From an uncultured Candidatus Actinomarina sp. (lineage in GTDB: Bacteria > Actinomycetota > Acidimicrobiia > Actinomarinales > Actinomarinaceae): 63,150 nt of DNA. The DNA lies in NCBI GenBank assembly GCA_902628045.1, contig CACOLU010000005.1, positions 1 to 63,150 on the forward strand, read 5' to 3'. Position 1 is the first letter of the stretch. Every line of letters begins with the position of its first letter. The translations under genes were made by a program, and so were the position numbers. Shown in pieces: positions 50,490 through 55,387 of this stretch. Below the pieces are notes generated by a model. It was not told where the DNA came from. It saw only the letters and a program-made list of their open reading frames with translations, and ran no database searches.

Positions 50490-51059
50490 ATGGAAATCCT
50501 TTTAGCTTCAAATAATAAAAATAAGCACAAAGAGTTATTAAAAATTTTTCAAGAATTTGGAAGTAAACACACCTTGATAATAAATAAAGATATTCCAGAT
50601 GTAATTGAAGATAAAAATACTATTGAGGAAAATGCAAAAAAGAAAGCTAAAGAATGTTACGAAGTTTTTAAATCTCCAATTATTTCTGATGATTCGGGTT
50701 TGTTTGTAGATGCATTAGAAGGTCAGCCTGGTGTTCATTCAAAGAGATATGCAGGCTTTAGTTCTACTGATGTTGAAAATAATCAAAAATTAATAAATGA
50801 ACTTAAAACAGCTGACAATCTTAGTGCTTTTTTTAAAACAGTTCTTTGTTATTTTGATGGTTTAAATTTCATAACATCAAAAGGAGTTCTTGAGGGAAAG
50901 ATTGTATTTGAACCAAGAGGAAAAAACGGTTTTGGCTATGACCCTATTTTTGAGGTAAGCGGGAAAACATTGGCTGAAATGACTTTAGATGAAAAATCAA
51001 ATATAAGCCATAGAAAATTAGCAGCAGTAAAGTTAGTTGGGAAACTAAATGAAATATAA
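50490..51059 (+). CDS. rdgB: Non-canonical purine NTP pyrophosphatase (RdgB/HAM1)
   Basis: LASNNKNK, ENAKKKA, SDDSGL, PGVHSKRY, NGFGYDPIF, SHR. Confidence 0.96.
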   Translation: MEILLASNNKNKHKELLKIFQEFGSKHTLIINKDIPDVIEDKNTIEENAKKKAKECYEVFKSPIISDDSGLFVDALEGQPGVHSKRYAGFSSTDVENNQKLINELKTADNLSAFFKTVLCYFDGLNFITSKGVLEGKIVFEPRGKNGFGYDPIFEVSGKTLAEMTLDEKSNISHRKLAAVKLVGKLNEI

Positions 51060-51741
51060 AAATAAAATTTATTTACTTGTAGCTTTTCTTGTATTTTCGG
51101 CATGTGAGATTAAATGGAACATGAATGTTGAATTTAACGAAGACTTTTCTGGAAGGTACACAATAAAATTATTAATTAACGAAGAACTCCAATTGTATGC
51201 ACTCGACATAGGTGAAGAGTCATCAATTGGAAGTCTTAACGATATTATTACTGATCTTCCAGATGGATTTGGTTCAAGTATATTCCAGGAAGATGCTTAT
51301 CTTGGAATACTAGTTCGTAATGATTTTGATAATATTAGTGAACTAAACGACCAGTTTGAACTTCTAAAATCTAACGAAAATACAGCTCTGTTACTTTTAC
51401 CAATTGAAGAGATTGATTTTCAAAATAATGATGGAGAATTTAAAATTAATGGATCTTTTGGTGAGTTGTTTGATACTGAAAATGAAATTATTAATCAATC
51501 GGGCTATGAAAATGTATTTGATGGAAAGCTGGGCTTTAAAGTACCTGGAGAAATTACAAAACCAAATATTAGCAATATCGTAGAAAATACCATCATTTTT
51601 GAAGCCGATGGAGTTTCAAGTAAAACTTTCGAACTTATATCAAGTACTGAAAGACCTCTCAATCCAATAAATATTGCTATAGCTTTTGTTGTGTTAACAG
51701 CAGTATATTTTTTTGTTAGACAATCAAGAAAAATAAAGTAA
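51049..51741 (+). CDS. LppM/DUF3153-like lipoprotein with C-terminal membrane anchor
   Basis: Lipobox FSAC, beta-rich start (WNMNVEFNEDFSG), VPGEIT, C-terminal TM followed by RQSRKIK. Confidence 0.6.
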   Translation: MKYKNKIYLLVAFLVFSACEIKWNMNVEFNEDFSGRYTIKLLINEELQLYALDIGEESSIGSLNDIITDLPDGFGSSIFQEDAYLGILVRNDFDNISELNDQFELLKSNENTALLLLPIEEIDFQNNDGEFKINGSFGELFDTENEIINQSGYENVFDGKLGFKVPGEITKPNISNIVENTIIFEADGVSSKTFELISSTERPLNPINIAIAFVVLTAVYFFVRQSRKIK

Positions 51742-51751
51742 TATTGTCACA

Positions 51752-51778
51752 ATGAAAAAAATTATAATTATTATTTAG
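51752..51778 (+). CDS. cimA leader peptide MKKIIIII
   Basis: ATG AAA AAA ATT ATA ATT ATT ATT TAG: five tandem Ile codons directly upstream of the attenuator. Confidence 0.85.
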   Translation: MKKIIIII

Positions 51779-51779
51779 G

Positions 51780-51827
51780 AGCAACGTTCTAAGCGTTGTT
51801 GCCCTTGCGTTGCAAGGGTTTTTTTTT
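51780..51827 (+). promoter_or_regulatory. Transcription attenuator (alternative hairpins plus intrinsic terminator) upstream of cimA
   Basis: Terminator GCCCTTGC-GTT-GCAAGGGT followed by a T-run (51801-51827). GCAACG (51781-51786) can pair with CGTTGT (51794-51799) or with CGTTGC (51808-51813) inside the terminator. Confidence 0.85.
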
Positions 51828-51833
51828 GGAATT

Positions 51834-53390
51834 ATGAAAATAGACATATTTGATACAACTTTAAGAGACGGCTTTCAACAAGAAGGAATTTCTCCATCTG
51901 TGAAGGATAAAATTGCAATTGCAAAACTGATAGATGGCTTAGGAGTTAGTTTTATTGAGGGTGGTTGGCCAGGTGCATCACCTAAAGAGGAAGAGTTTTT
52001 TGAAGCTGCAAAAAGAGAGTTAAATTTAAAAAATGCAAAACTTGTAAGTTTTGGTTCCACTAGAAAACTAGACTTATCAGCTAAAGACGATCCACAAGTA
52101 AAGGCATTGGTTGATTCTGGCACTGATTATATCTGTATTGTAGGTAAATCTTCAAAACTTCATATTACAAAAGCGTTGCAAACTGATGTTGGCAGTGCAA
52201 TTGATATGGCAGTTGATACAATTTTGTATTTAAAGTCAAAGGGTAAAAAAGTATTTTTTGATGCAGAGCATTTTTTTGACGGCTACAAAGAAGACTTTAA
52301 AACAAGTCTAAAAATTCTAGAATCTGTAGTTTCAGCTGGTGCAGATTGTTTTATATTTTGTGATACAAATGGTGGTACATTGCCTGAGGAAGTTAGAAGA
52401 ATTCTCTCTGAGGTTATAGAAGAACATCCAAAAACTAAATTTGGTGTTCATTTTCAAAATGATAATGGCTGTGCAGTTGTTAACTCAATGGTCGCGGTAG
52501 ATCTTGGTGTTGATCATGTTCAGGGAACAATAAATGGGTATGGTGAAAGGACTGGAAATGCAGACCTTTGTACACTCATTCCTAATCTATCTTTAAAGCA
52601 AAATTATGAGACAATACCTACAGATTCTCTTAAAAAACTAACTCAGACAGCCAATCATATTGCAGAACTTGTAAATGTGTCAATCGATTCAAGGCATCCA
52701 TATGTTGGGTCATCAGCTTTTACCCACAAGGCAGGACTTCATGCATCTGGTATGTCAAAAGACAGTTCACTATATGAACACATAGATGCTTCAAAAGTTG
52801 GCAATTTTACAAGAACTACTGTTTCAGAATTAGCAGGTAGAGCAAGTGTTATTACAAAAGCAGAGGAATTTGGATTAAGTATTAATAATGATGAAGCTAA
52901 AGATTTAATTCAACAAGTTCAAAACTTAGAACACATTGGTTTTCAATTTGAAGCGGCGGATGCTTCGTTATTTATATTAATGAATTTAATAAAAGGAATT
53001 AAGCCAGATTTTTTTGAATTTGAAAGTTTTAGAGTTTTTTCGGAAAGAAGAAATTCTGAAAATGTTGTTTCAGAAGCTGTTTGTAAGATTACTGTAAATA
53101 ATAATAGATATGTTAAAACCGGAGAAGGAGTTGGTCCGGTTGATGCCCTCTCAAAAGCATTGAAATCAGCACTTGAAAATGACTACAAAGACATTAACAA
53201 TGTGAAACTTATTGATTACAAGGTGAGGATAATTGATTCCTCTGATGGTACAGAAGCTAAAACAAGAGTACTAATTGAATTTACTGATACAAAAAAACAA
53301 TGGAGCACTATTGGTGTACATGAAAATATTATCAATGCCTCTTGGAATGCTCTTTGCGATGGATTTAATTATTATTTTATGACTTCTTAG
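51834..53390 (+). CDS. cimA: Citramalate synthase
   Basis: DTTLRDGFQQEG, IEGGWPG, FDAEHFFDG, CDTNGG, HFQND, NGYGERTGNAD, AFTHKAGLH, SELAGRA, G.GPVDAL, DYKVRI, WSTIGVHENII. Confidence 0.95.
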   Translation: MKIDIFDTTLRDGFQQEGISPSVKDKIAIAKLIDGLGVSFIEGGWPGASPKEEEFFEAAKRELNLKNAKLVSFGSTRKLDLSAKDDPQVKALVDSGTDYICIVGKSSKLHITKALQTDVGSAIDMAVDTILYLKSKGKKVFFDAEHFFDGYKEDFKTSLKILESVVSAGADCFIFCDTNGGTLPEEVRRILSEVIEEHPKTKFGVHFQNDNGCAVVNSMVAVDLGVDHVQGTINGYGERTGNADLCTLIPNLSLKQNYETIPTDSLKKLTQTANHIAELVNVSIDSRHPYVGSSAFTHKAGLHASGMSKDSSLYEHIDASKVGNFTRTTVSELAGRASVITKAEEFGLSINNDEAKDLIQQVQNLEHIGFQFEAADASLFILMNLIKGIKPDFFEFESFRVFSERRNSENVVSEAVCKITVNNNRYVKTGEGVGPVDALSKALKSALENDYKDINNVKLIDYKVRIIDSSDGTEAKTRVLIEFTDTKKQWSTIGVHENIINASWNALCDGFNYYFMTS

Positions 53391-53440
53391 GTAGATTTTT
53401 CACTTTACAGATATATATACTATTTTAAAGGGGAGAATTT

Positions 53441-55387
53441 ATGAATGAAAAAATTGAAAACCTACTTAAAGAAGATAGAAAGTTTCCGCCTTCTGAAGAG
53501 CTTATTAAAAATGCAAACGCTCCTTCTTCTTGGTATGACGATGCAAATGAAGATAGATTAAAATTTTGGCAAAAACAAGCTCTAACAAGAATTTCTTGGT
53601 TTAAAGAACCAACAGAGATACTTGATGATTCAAACCCACCTTTTTTCAAATGGTTTAAAGATGGCGAGCTTAACTTATCATATAATTGCTTAGATAGACA
53701 CCTTGAGTCTGATGGAGATAGAGTTGCATTCTATTGGGAAGGAGAACCCGGAGATACCCAAAAAATTACATATCAAGACTTATATGAGAGAGTTTGTAAG
53801 CTTTCAAATGCAATGAAAAAACTTGGTGTAGAAAAAGGTGACAGAGTAGCAATTTATTTAGGGATGACTCCAGAAATTGTAGTTTCTATGCTGGCATGTG
53901 CAAGGATTGGGGCAGTGCATTCAGTTGTATTTGGTGGATTTTCATCAGAAGCCCTTGCAGATAGAATTAATGACGCAAAAGCAAAAACAGTTATTACCGC
54001 TGATGGGGCATGGAGAAGGGGAGATATAGTTCCTCTAAAAAACAATGTTGATGGCTCATTAGAACTTACCGAATATGTAGAAAATGTAATTGTTGTTAAA
54101 CGTACTGAACAGGATATCAATATGACTGAAGGTCGAGATCATTGGTACCACGATTTAACTGATAACGAATCTTCTGATTGTGAACCTGAAATAATGAATT
54201 CTGAAGATATGCTGTACATTCTTTATACATCTGGCACAACTGCAAAACCTAAAGGTATTGTACACACACAAGCGGGATATTTAACAGGAGTGACAACTAC
54301 TCATCACGAGGTTTTTGATGTAAAAGAAGATGATATTTACTGGTGTGCTGCAGATTGTGGATGGGTTACAGGTCATAGTTATATTGTTTATGGTCCATTA
54401 GCTAATAAAGCTACAAGCGTTATGTATGAGGGAGCACCAAATGCACCAGACGAGAAAAGACTTTGGAGTATTATTGAAAAGTATAAAGTAAATATTTTTT
54501 ATACAGCTCCAACTGCAATAAGAGCATTTATGAAATGGGGTGTAGAGCATCCTCAAGCACATGATTTAAGTTCACTAAGAATTTTAGGTACTGTGGGGGA
54601 ACCTATTAATCCAGAAGCATGGATGTGGTATCACGAAAATATCGGTGGTAAGAATTGTGCAATTGTGGATACATGGTGGCAAACGGAAACTGGCTCAATA
54701 ATGATTTCACCGCTCCCAGGTGTGACAAGTACCAAACCTGGATCAGCTTGTGGACCACTGCCCGGTATCGAATCAATTGTGATTGATAATGATGGAAAAG
54801 AAGTAGGTAAGGGTGAAGGAGGCTTTTTAGCAGTAAAATCTCCATGGCCATCAATGCTTAGAACTGTTTATGGAGACGATAAAAGGTATTTGGATACTTA
54901 TTGGTCACAACACGATGGTTTATATTTTGCAGGTGATGGTGCCAAATATGATGAAGAAGGCTATATATGGCTCTTAGGCCGTGTTGATGATGTAATGAAT
55001 ATATCTGGACATAGAATATCTACTGCTGAGGTTGAGAGTGCTTTAGTATCTCATCCAGCAGTAGCTGAAGCTGCAGTTATTGGCAGAAGTGATGAAATAA
55101 CTGGAGAGGCTATTGCTGCATTTGTTTCATTAATAGGAACTGATGAAGGCAACGAAGATTTAATTGCTGATCTTAGGCAGCACGTAAGTGACAAAATTGG
55201 TCCAATTGCTAAACCAAAAAGTATTGTTATAACTGCTGATTTACCAAAAACTAGAAGTGGAAAAATCATGCGGAGGCTTTTAAAAGATATTTCAGAAGAA
55301 AGAAAGCTCGGAGATGTAACTACATTAGCTAACGCAGATATTGTATCTGAATTACAGACAAGAGCATCTGAATCTGACGATGAATGA
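53441..55387 (+). CDS. acs: Acetyl-CoA synthetase (AMP-forming)
   Basis: YTSGTTAKPKG, WVTGHSYIVYGPL, DTWWQTETG, GRVDDV, PKTRSGKIMRR (acetylatable Lys). Confidence 0.98.
   Translation: MNEKIENLLKEDRKFPPSEELIKNANAPSSWYDDANEDRLKFWQKQALTRISWFKEPTEILDDSNPPFFKWFKDGELNLSYNCLDRHLESDGDRVAFYWEGEPGDTQKITYQDLYERVCKLSNAMKKLGVEKGDRVAIYLGMTPEIVVSMLACARIGAVHSVVFGGFSSEALADRINDAKAKTVITADGAWRRGDIVPLKNNVDGSLELTEYVENVIVVKRTEQDINMTEGRDHWYHDLTDNESSDCEPEIMNSEDMLYILYTSGTTAKPKGIVHTQAGYLTGVTTTHHEVFDVKEDDIYWCAADCGWVTGHSYIVYGPLANKATSVMYEGAPNAPDEKRLWSIIEKYKVNIFYTAPTAIRAFMKWGVEHPQAHDLSSLRILGTVGEPINPEAWMWYHENIGGKNCAIVDTWWQTETGSIMISPLPGVTSTKPGSACGPLPGIESIVIDNDGKEVGKGEGGFLAVKSPWPSMLRTVYGDDKRYLDTYWSQHDGLYFAGDGAKYDEEGYIWLLGRVDDVMNISGHRISTAEVESALVSHPAVAEAAVIGRSDEITGEAIAAFVSLIGTDEGNEDLIADLRQHVSDKIGPIAKPKSIVITADLPKTRSGKIMRRLLKDISEERKLGDVTTLANADIVSELQTRASESDDE

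Follow-up and report, generated by a model that had tools for sequence, protein, structure and literature searches.

A candidate isoleucine-sensing leader-peptide attenuator upstream of cimA in Candidatus Actinomarina and other Actinomycetota

In the enterobacterial attenuators trpL, thrL, ilvL, ivbL, leuL and hisL, leader RNA segments pair as 1:2, 2:3 and 3:4, and segment 3 is common to the antiterminator and the terminator. Among actinobacteria, leaders with terminators were predicted upstream of ilvB in 2005, with the mode of regulation described as "not clear" (Seliverstov et al. 2005, PMC1262725), and leaderless leader peptides are known in the group, including that of ilvL of Streptomyces (PMC8079986). 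The ilvB-II motif of Corynebacterium lowered expression in rich medium when tested with reporters (Narunsky et al. 2023, PMC10272879). For the upstream open reading frame (uORF) attenuator of Mycobacterium tuberculosis ilvB1, function was validated both by replacement of LVVI by AAAA, which abolishes induction, and by deletion of the terminator (PMC13236596). Here we describe a 76-nucleotide (nt) RNA element located directly upstream of cimA, the gene for citramalate synthase, in a 63,150-nt stretch of contig CACOLU010000005.1 from an uncultured Candidatus Actinomarina sp. (assembly GCA_902628045.1); this whole stretch is referred to below as the window. In the citramalate route to isoleucine, cimA encodes the first committed step. 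The assembly measures 0.88 Mb (882 kb), has a GC content of ~32% and is 70% complete. Candidatus Actinomarina, whose genome of ~1 Mb is among the smallest of free-living organisms, would thus keep an isoleucine regulator that needs no protein.

The element is probably a leader-peptide transcription attenuator that senses charged tRNA-Ile, is gated through a hairpin next to the leader stop codon (hairpin 1) and controls cimA. The original prediction of an isoleucine-sensing, ribosome-mediated attenuator of cimA gains strong comparative support from the uORF, its Ile run, the hairpin, the terminator and leader codons that track the regulated gene. Judged from conservation and covariation, the element is real, ancient and widespread in actinobacteria. 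A literature search for a cimA leader peptide or cimA attenuation returned nothing relevant by title or abstract; one T-box paper with citramalate synthase and isoleucine was left aside.

Layout of the cimA leader

The features of the locus are as follows.

51717 to 51722, forward strand: TAGACA, a -35-like hexamer found by promoter scan within the final codons of the upstream open reading frame (ORF)
51739 to 51741, forward strand: stop codon of the upstream ORF, by direct sequence reading
51739 to 51744, forward strand: TAATAT (TAnnnT), the -10 hexamer from the promoter scan, its end 7 nt 5' of the leader ATG
51752 to 51778, forward strand: leader ORF encoding MKKIIIII, with stop codon TAG, read from the sequence as ATG AAA AAA ATT ATA ATT ATT ATT TAG
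51761 to 51775, forward strand: five consecutive Ile codons (ATT ATA ATT ATT ATT), read from the sequence, the proposed sensor of charged tRNA-Ile
51780 to 51800, forward strand: hairpin 1, AGCAACGUU-CUA-AGCGUUGUU, 9 bp, -8.6 kcal/mol in the minimum free energy (MFE) fold
51801 to 51819, forward strand: terminator stem-loop, GCCCUUGC-GUU-GCAAGGGU (DNA GCCCTTGC-GTT-GCAAGGGT), from terminator scan and MFE fold, -11.7 kcal/mol
51819 to 51827, forward strand: U9 tract (nine T), from the sequence and terminator scan, invariant within the genus
51834 to 53390, forward strand: cimA, citramalate synthase of 518 amino acids (aa), matched by TIGR00977, the regulated gene

The five-Ile leader, the GCAACG motif that follows it and the terminator with its nine T residues ahead of cimA all read as originally described. 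A single G separates the leader TAG from hairpin 1, and hairpin 1 and the terminator abut, with a spacer of 0 nt. Terminator scanning and folding predict an intrinsic terminator whose stem of 8 bp is G+C-rich and is followed by the U9 tract. Both hairpins are present, side by side, in the MFE and centroid folds. Only GGAAUU (6 nt) lies between the U tract and the cimA ATG, so that cimA has no space for a promoter of its own.

The identity of the regulated gene is well defined. Its product scores 616 bits against TIGR00977 (cutoff 450), which is an equivalog-level assignment as citramalate synthase, and scores 237-278 bits against the LeuA models, under their cutoffs of 517-599. The proposal that the attenuator favours CimA over LeuA agrees with these scores. 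The protein is 77% identical to one from a single-cell genome of an uncultured Candidatus Actinomarina sp. and ~50% identical to proteins of Acidimicrobiia metagenome-assembled genomes (MAGs), and identical CimA proteins are present on marine metagenome contigs of Tara Oceans.

The promoter elements keep their distance from the leader. Measured from the A of the leader ATG, TAGACA is found at -34 to -37 and TAnnnT at -12 to -15 in 19/19 sequences of the genus, and high-GC relatives carry (C/T/A)ATACT 6-12 nt ahead of the leader start codon. There is no Shine-Dalgarno sequence before the leader ATG. The position of the promoter implies a predicted transcript start at the leader ATG or within 1-2 nt of it; because the conserved promoter sets the leader ATG at the transcript start, the leader is most likely translated from a leaderless or near-leaderless transcript. 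The -35 hexamer lies in the C-terminal codons (..VRQSRKIK, then the stop codon) of the upstream 230-aa ORF (ORF230, 51049-51741), which falls in no NCBIfam or Pfam family.

One further pairing appears in the MFE fold, in which the Ile codons UUAUAAUU (51762-51769) pair with the cimA start region AAUUAUGA (51830-51837) and enclose both hairpins. On read-through RNA with no ribosome bound to the leader, this pairing could hide the cimA start codon. It is impossible in relatives of the genus that have GGAAGAGAGAAA as the ribosome-binding region, and it is probably an accident of AT richness.

Conservation of the element and codon content of the leader

A covariance model, designated R1, was built from 24 high-GC relatives and included no sequence of the Actinomarina genus. 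It extends from the Ile codons and the stop codon through hairpin 1 and the spacer to the terminator and its U tract. The sole R1 match in the window is at 51761-51827 (29.1 bits, E = 9e-5), which is also the top match in the whole 882-kb assembly. A scan of the assembly for short ORFs with an amino-acid run followed by a terminator gave no other credible site.

For covariation analysis, 58 homologues were aligned to R1, with 500 shuffles as control. Covariation is seen in both helices, with 98.2% of cells paired, compensatory change in 12 of the 14 pairs and 182 compensatory cells, and none of the 500 shuffles matches the observed covariation score, number of paired cells or number of compensatory cells. 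All seven modelled pairs of hairpin 1 show compensatory change; in the terminator helix 100% of cells are paired and 5/7 pairs covary. An alignment made with MAFFT, not fitted to the model, gave 95.7% paired cells and 11/14 compensatory pairs. Hairpin 1 of the AT-rich genus was misaligned by MAFFT, and the alignment to the covariance model was used instead.

The leader upstream of cimA is kept across the genus, the Acidimicrobiia and many Actinomycetes. Every genome of the genus that has cimA also has the element. The leaders of the genus (MKKIIIII, MKKIIIIV, MQKIIIIV, MNIIIII, MMNIIIIN and MINFIIII; 24 or 27 nt) retain start and stop codons in frame and the Ile run, with synonymous exchange of ATT, ATC and ATA. 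High-GC members of the same class have elements of identical layout and wholly different sequence, with leaders that end in ...IIII and one of R, D, C, T, L, S or N before the stop codon, a hairpin that starts from the stop codon and then a terminator. The element lies immediately before cimA in several families of Acidimicrobiia. In families of this class where cimA directly follows ilvE, it is found ~2 kb upstream, before leuB-ilvE-cimA, with leaders ending in VIIIP, VVIIP, VIVID or IIIIR; the identity of these genes was confirmed.

Beyond the class, a phylum-wide scan with R1 yielded matches in 85/401 genomes, and 57/80 named cimA loci have an R1 match upstream of cimA on the coding strand. 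Named carriers are Kribbella, Actinoplanes, Pedococcus, Nostocoides, Nonomuraea, Amycolatopsis, Kitasatospora and Streptomyces; several more loci of Streptomyces and Kitasatospora have the element below the R1 threshold. It is absent from the cimA loci checked in Paenibacillus, Thermodesulfovibrionia and Dehalococcoidia. Rfam 15, including the Leu, Thr, His and Trp leaders, ilvB-OMG and T-box, gave no relevant match in 50500-53000 at E up to 10, nor any at E up to 0.1 in nine loci that represent the cimA and ilvB types.

These comparisons bear on the simplest alternative, namely that the hairpin simply terminates the upstream rph-rdgB-ORF230 operon and that the mini-ORF is a product of chance in AT-rich DNA. 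The genes of this operon are co-oriented and lack another terminator, and ATT and ATA are common triplets at 32% GC. Against this, the in-frame start, Ile run and stop are conserved from genomes of 32% GC to genomes of ~70% GC with different upstream genes, and R1, whose model includes the Ile codons, finds the site specifically. Moreover, a conserved promoter precedes the leader, and the gap ahead of cimA is too short for another. We regard the chance of an ordinary terminator as close to negligible.

The content of the leaders differs with the gene that follows. Second copies of the element within carrier genomes, and matches in other classes, are upstream of ilvB or ilvD, and their leaders end in LVLIT, LVLIG, VILID, VVVIQ or LVVVT before the stop codon. 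The last five sense codons of 45 cimA-type leaders comprise 159 I, 3 L and 14 V, versus 13 I, 19 L and 20 V in 13 leaders of the ilvB/ilvD type (Fisher p = 1.3e-19 for the split between Ile and mixed codons, not corrected for phylogeny). CimA serves isoleucine alone, and IlvB and IlvD serve all three branched-chain amino acids. The codon content of the leader therefore tracks the regulated gene, as ribosome-mediated sensing predicts. This amounts to a clean, gene-specific amino-acid logic in which one RNA architecture carries Ile codons before CimA and Leu, Val and Ile codons before IlvB and IlvD, and it supports the function assigned to cimA across thousands of genomes of actinobacteria. Codon choice is also biased, in that the rare ATT makes up 39% of Ile codons in high-GC leaders versus 6.5% in cimA coding sequences and clusters at the last two Ile positions.

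Two side observations concern the leaders themselves. The leader stop is mostly TAG even in high-GC genomes (alignment A3, columns 16-18), where TGA would be expected as the commoner stop codon, although this is an expectation only; the G of TAG begins or precedes the GCGC base of hairpin 1, which is the apparent source of the preference. At three ilvB-type loci of other Actinomycetota (L108, L110 and L111), a conserved ORF of ~110-150 aa (MRFEFH.. or MRYEFERDG..) lies between the L/V/I leader-terminator and ilvB.

Within the present assembly, candidates for a second copy were rejected: weak R1 matches fall within coding sequence, and a candidate with a Leu run, on C4, belongs to the 3' end of a gene. 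No leader or terminator was found upstream of ilvD and ilvE, and genomes of the genus generally have the cimA copy only. In tblastn searches of the 70%-complete assembly, ilvE and ilvD were found, ilvB and leuB were not found at E 1e-10, and the LeuA-like paralogue of relatives (~27% identity to CimA) was not found in it either.

Hairpin 1, the leader ribosome and termination

The geometry around hairpin 1 is conserved. Relative to the end of the stop codon, the start of hairpin 1 falls between -3 and +2 nt in 58/58 sequences; hairpin 1 measures 19-43 nt and the terminator 15-32 nt, and an unpaired spacer of 0-5 nt (median 1) separates the two. Depending on the locus, 6 to ~300 nt lie between the U tract and the structural gene. 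In Nonomuraea, Acrocarpospora, Streptomyces, Amycolatopsis, Streptomonospora, Lentzea and the Actinomycetota MAG L152, the leader ORF continues across the 5' arm of hairpin 1, and its stop codon falls within the hairpin loop, at the following loci.

L141, L140, L185, L206, L195, L182, L172, L151 and L152: cimA leaders reading through hairpin 1, for example MFYGLLIIGRRAG and MLSFATIIGSRRAGPQ, each followed by a stop codon

The layout in Acidimicrobiia differs in that the stop codon precedes hairpin 1. In the Actinomycetes whose ORF enters hairpin 1, the Ile codons are still 4-8 nt ahead of it. Because this spacing is kept despite the overlap, what is conserved is the placement of hairpin 1 just ahead of a ribosome waiting on the last Ile codon.

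The effect of the ribosome on both hairpins was modelled in 34 homologues by masking the RNA up to +13 from the first P-site base and calculating pair probabilities. With the ribosome at the first Ile codon, the pair probability of hairpin 1 was 0.89-1.0 (0.93 at this site); at the last Ile codon hairpin 1 was partly lost (0.28-0.99); and at the stop codon it was gone (0-0.06, and 0 at this site). The terminator kept a pair probability of at least 0.93 in all ribosome states for 33/34 homologues, with a minimum of 0.79 in the remaining one, and of 0.98 at this site in every modelled state. An all-against-all covariation scan recovered nothing beyond the two helices and extensions of the terminator helix by one base pair, and found no alternative or cross-helix pairing.

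These results weigh on the classical mechanism of the original prediction, in which a ribosome stalled on the Ile codons frees GCAACG (51781-51786) to invade the terminator and a ribosome at the stop codon masks it. GCAACG is in fact complementary, in this sequence, both to CGTTGT (51794-51799) and to CGTTGC (51808-51813, in the stem top and loop of the terminator); the six bases of the GCAACG:CGUUGC pairing match perfectly, and a ribosome at the stop codon would cover GCAACG. However, GCAACG has a nearer and longer partner in the 9-bp hairpin 1, which coexists with the terminator in the predicted folds, and the terminator folds in every ribosome state. The loop base 51809, which would pair with C of GCAACG, is G, T, A or C among relatives of the genus, and other members of the genus have ACAACG as the 5' arm, which breaks the pairing. 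High-GC homologues have no equivalent complementarity, and no cross-helix pairs covary. Invasion of the terminator by GCAACG is thus very unlikely. The masking of GCAACG by a ribosome at the stop codon was correctly foreseen, but what is thereby removed is hairpin 1 and not an invader of the terminator.

Other pairings considered by eye were likewise not conserved. They would join the 5' arms of the two hairpins to each other, and likewise the two 3' arms; lengthen hairpin 1 downward into the Ile codons, the stop codon and the spacer; join the loop of hairpin 1, which in high-GC genomes is often C-rich, to GGG of the terminator 3' arm, for which the AT-rich genus has no loop complementarity; or join the leader A7 run to the U9 tract.

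A ribosome might instead evade the TAG by a hungry-codon frameshift on the AUU AUU run, translate both hairpins and so prevent the terminator from forming. From 51768 to 51836 the +1 frame has no stop codon, so that it crosses both hairpins and the U tract, and it coincides with the frame of the cimA ATG; in 19/19 sequences of the genus one or more shifted frames stay open across the terminator. Yet no one frame is conserved, since +1 is open in 17/19, the other two have -1 open, and -1 is closed in most. Several relatives have a stop codon after the U tract, open frames are uninformative in high-GC relatives, and a frameshift leaves the conserved, covarying hairpin 1 unexplained. We consider it extremely unlikely.

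The mechanism that we favour is attenuation gated through hairpin 1. Transcription from the TAGACA/TAATAT promoter would begin at or beside the leader ATG, and a 70S ribosome would translate the leaderless eight-codon ORF. When Ile-tRNA is plentiful, the ribosome would reach the TAG with its leading edge on the 5' arm of hairpin 1 and exclude that hairpin; the 3' arm would then be single-stranded, the adjoining terminator would fold, polymerase would release at the U9 tract and cimA would be off. When Ile-tRNA is scarce, the ribosome would wait on the Ile codons short of hairpin 1, which would stay folded, termination would be suppressed and cimA would be on. Hairpin 1 would probably also pause polymerase 10-12 nt downstream, in the 5' arm or loop of the terminator, until the ribosome comes. 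By its position, and by the sign that the regulation requires, we infer that hairpin 1 acts as the functional antiterminator. Since hairpin 1 and the terminator share no bases, this suppression would not be classical strand competition, and something else must couple hairpin 1 to termination.

One candidate for the coupling is steric, a "virtual collision" that would antiterminate with no antiterminator base pairing whatsoever. This part of the proposal is tentative, and we consider it possible but somewhat doubtful. It is suggested by the junction spacer of zero to few nt. With no spacer, the 3' arm of hairpin 1 would be continuous with the 5' arm of the terminator (the B-C strand), and the 5' end of hairpin 1, with its stalled ribosome, and the 3' end of the terminator stem, at the RNA-DNA hybrid in polymerase, would leave the same junction. 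A pre-formed hairpin 1 with a ribosome at its foot would then occupy the place where the base of the terminator stem enters the RNA exit channel, and completion of the terminator would be hindered. A ribosome at the stop codon would turn hairpin 1 into 10-17 nt of slack. If true, the steric account would represent a new physical principle of attenuation in Actinomycetota for cimA, leuB-ilvE-cimA, ilvB and ilvD.

Several points weigh against attenuation through hairpin 1. Its link to termination is drawn only from position and sign, and in the model the terminator folds in every state. The base of hairpin 1 is weak in the AT-rich genus, with A-U and G-U pairs, and the Fisher tests on leader codons count related sequences as independent. 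As for the steric part, we know of no experimental precedent, and structured riboswitch aptamers sit near terminators without blocking them. Finally, a codon mutation in the ilvB leader of Streptomyces coelicolor is reported to have had no effect, at least as that work is cited in PMC1262725. The mutation also favours the alternative that hairpin 1 does not influence termination and serves only for pausing, synchronisation or stabilisation of the 5' end, with read-through set by a protein, polymerase kinetics, mRNA stability or a leaky constitutive terminator. The folding, in which the two hairpins do not compete, is in keeping with such a role, and within the genus neither arm of hairpin 1 varies, as would be true of a protein-binding site. 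Between families, however, hairpin 1 differs completely in sequence yet keeps its pairing and its place with respect to the Ile codons. The conserved Ile codons, rare-codon bias and gene-specific composition are sensible only if ribosome progress matters, and the 0-5 nt spacer is kept while other distances vary. We judge a hairpin 1 without effect on termination to be unlikely.

The attenuator would also act on its neighbourhood. The upstream rph-rdgB-ORF230 operon lacks a separate terminator, and its transcription would end at that of the attenuator. On read-in transcripts from this operon the leader ATG would be internal and, having no Shine-Dalgarno sequence, untranslated, and these transcripts would stop at the same terminator. 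Downstream, acs, encoding acetyl-CoA synthetase (NF001208, 1019 bits; 53441-55387), follows cimA after a gap of 50 nt (53391-53440), in which neither a terminator nor a strong promoter is predicted. acs is next to cimA on two marine metagenome contigs as well. acs may be transcribed together with cimA, whose product consumes acetyl-CoA, and hence come under the isoleucine attenuator.

Comparison with described attenuators

The cimA element resembles the enterobacterial attenuators in the run of end-product codons within a short ORF, the predicted intrinsic terminator, the modelled masking of the next segment by a ribosome at the stop codon and the use of rare codons. It is unlike them in that the stop-adjacent hairpin and the terminator are separate and abutting. 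Relative to the trpL type, a leader ORF with cognate codons and a terminator before the gene with no later promoter are both present, as predicted from sequence, whereas a strand shared by antiterminator and terminator was not found in the MFE fold, the 34-homologue ribosome model or the covariation scan. The failure of this defining test of classical attenuators leaves a concrete mechanistic question, which can be put to the same element in the cultivable Kribbella, Actinoplanes, Pedococcus and Streptomyces.

Closer parallels come from the actinobacteria. Like the ilvB leaders of this group (PMC1262725) and ilvL of Streptomyces (PMC8079986), the cimA leader is a candidate leader peptide, probably leaderless, with a run of branched-chain codons followed by a terminator. 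Those leaders, however, precede ilvB and not cimA, their ORFs are described as overlapping the terminator hairpin, and neither source lists a cimA leader. The Corynebacterium ilvB-II motif (PMC10272879) likewise consists of P1 and P2 (the terminator) with a uORF rich in branched-chain amino acids upstream of a branched-chain amino acid gene. In ilvB-II the uORF spans P1 and the antiterminator, as drawn, pairs the P1 loop with the lower right side of P2, whereas the uORF of the cimA element, at least that of Acidimicrobiia, stops short of hairpin 1, and no pairing like that of the P1 loop with P2 is conserved.

The ilvB1NC attenuator of M. tuberculosis (PMC13236596) belongs to the same phylum and resembles the cimA element in having a short uORF with regulatory codons near its end, then a hairpin that would be masked once the ribosome reaches the stop codon, and lastly a Rho-independent terminator ahead of the gene. 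The ilvB-type R1 matches have the layout of this attenuator, M. tuberculosis being compared by its published description. The M. tuberculosis system is described with a mutually exclusive antiterminator and terminator, whereas the two hairpins of the cimA element share no bases; and it senses Leu, Val and Ile for ilvB, whereas the cimA element would sense Ile alone.

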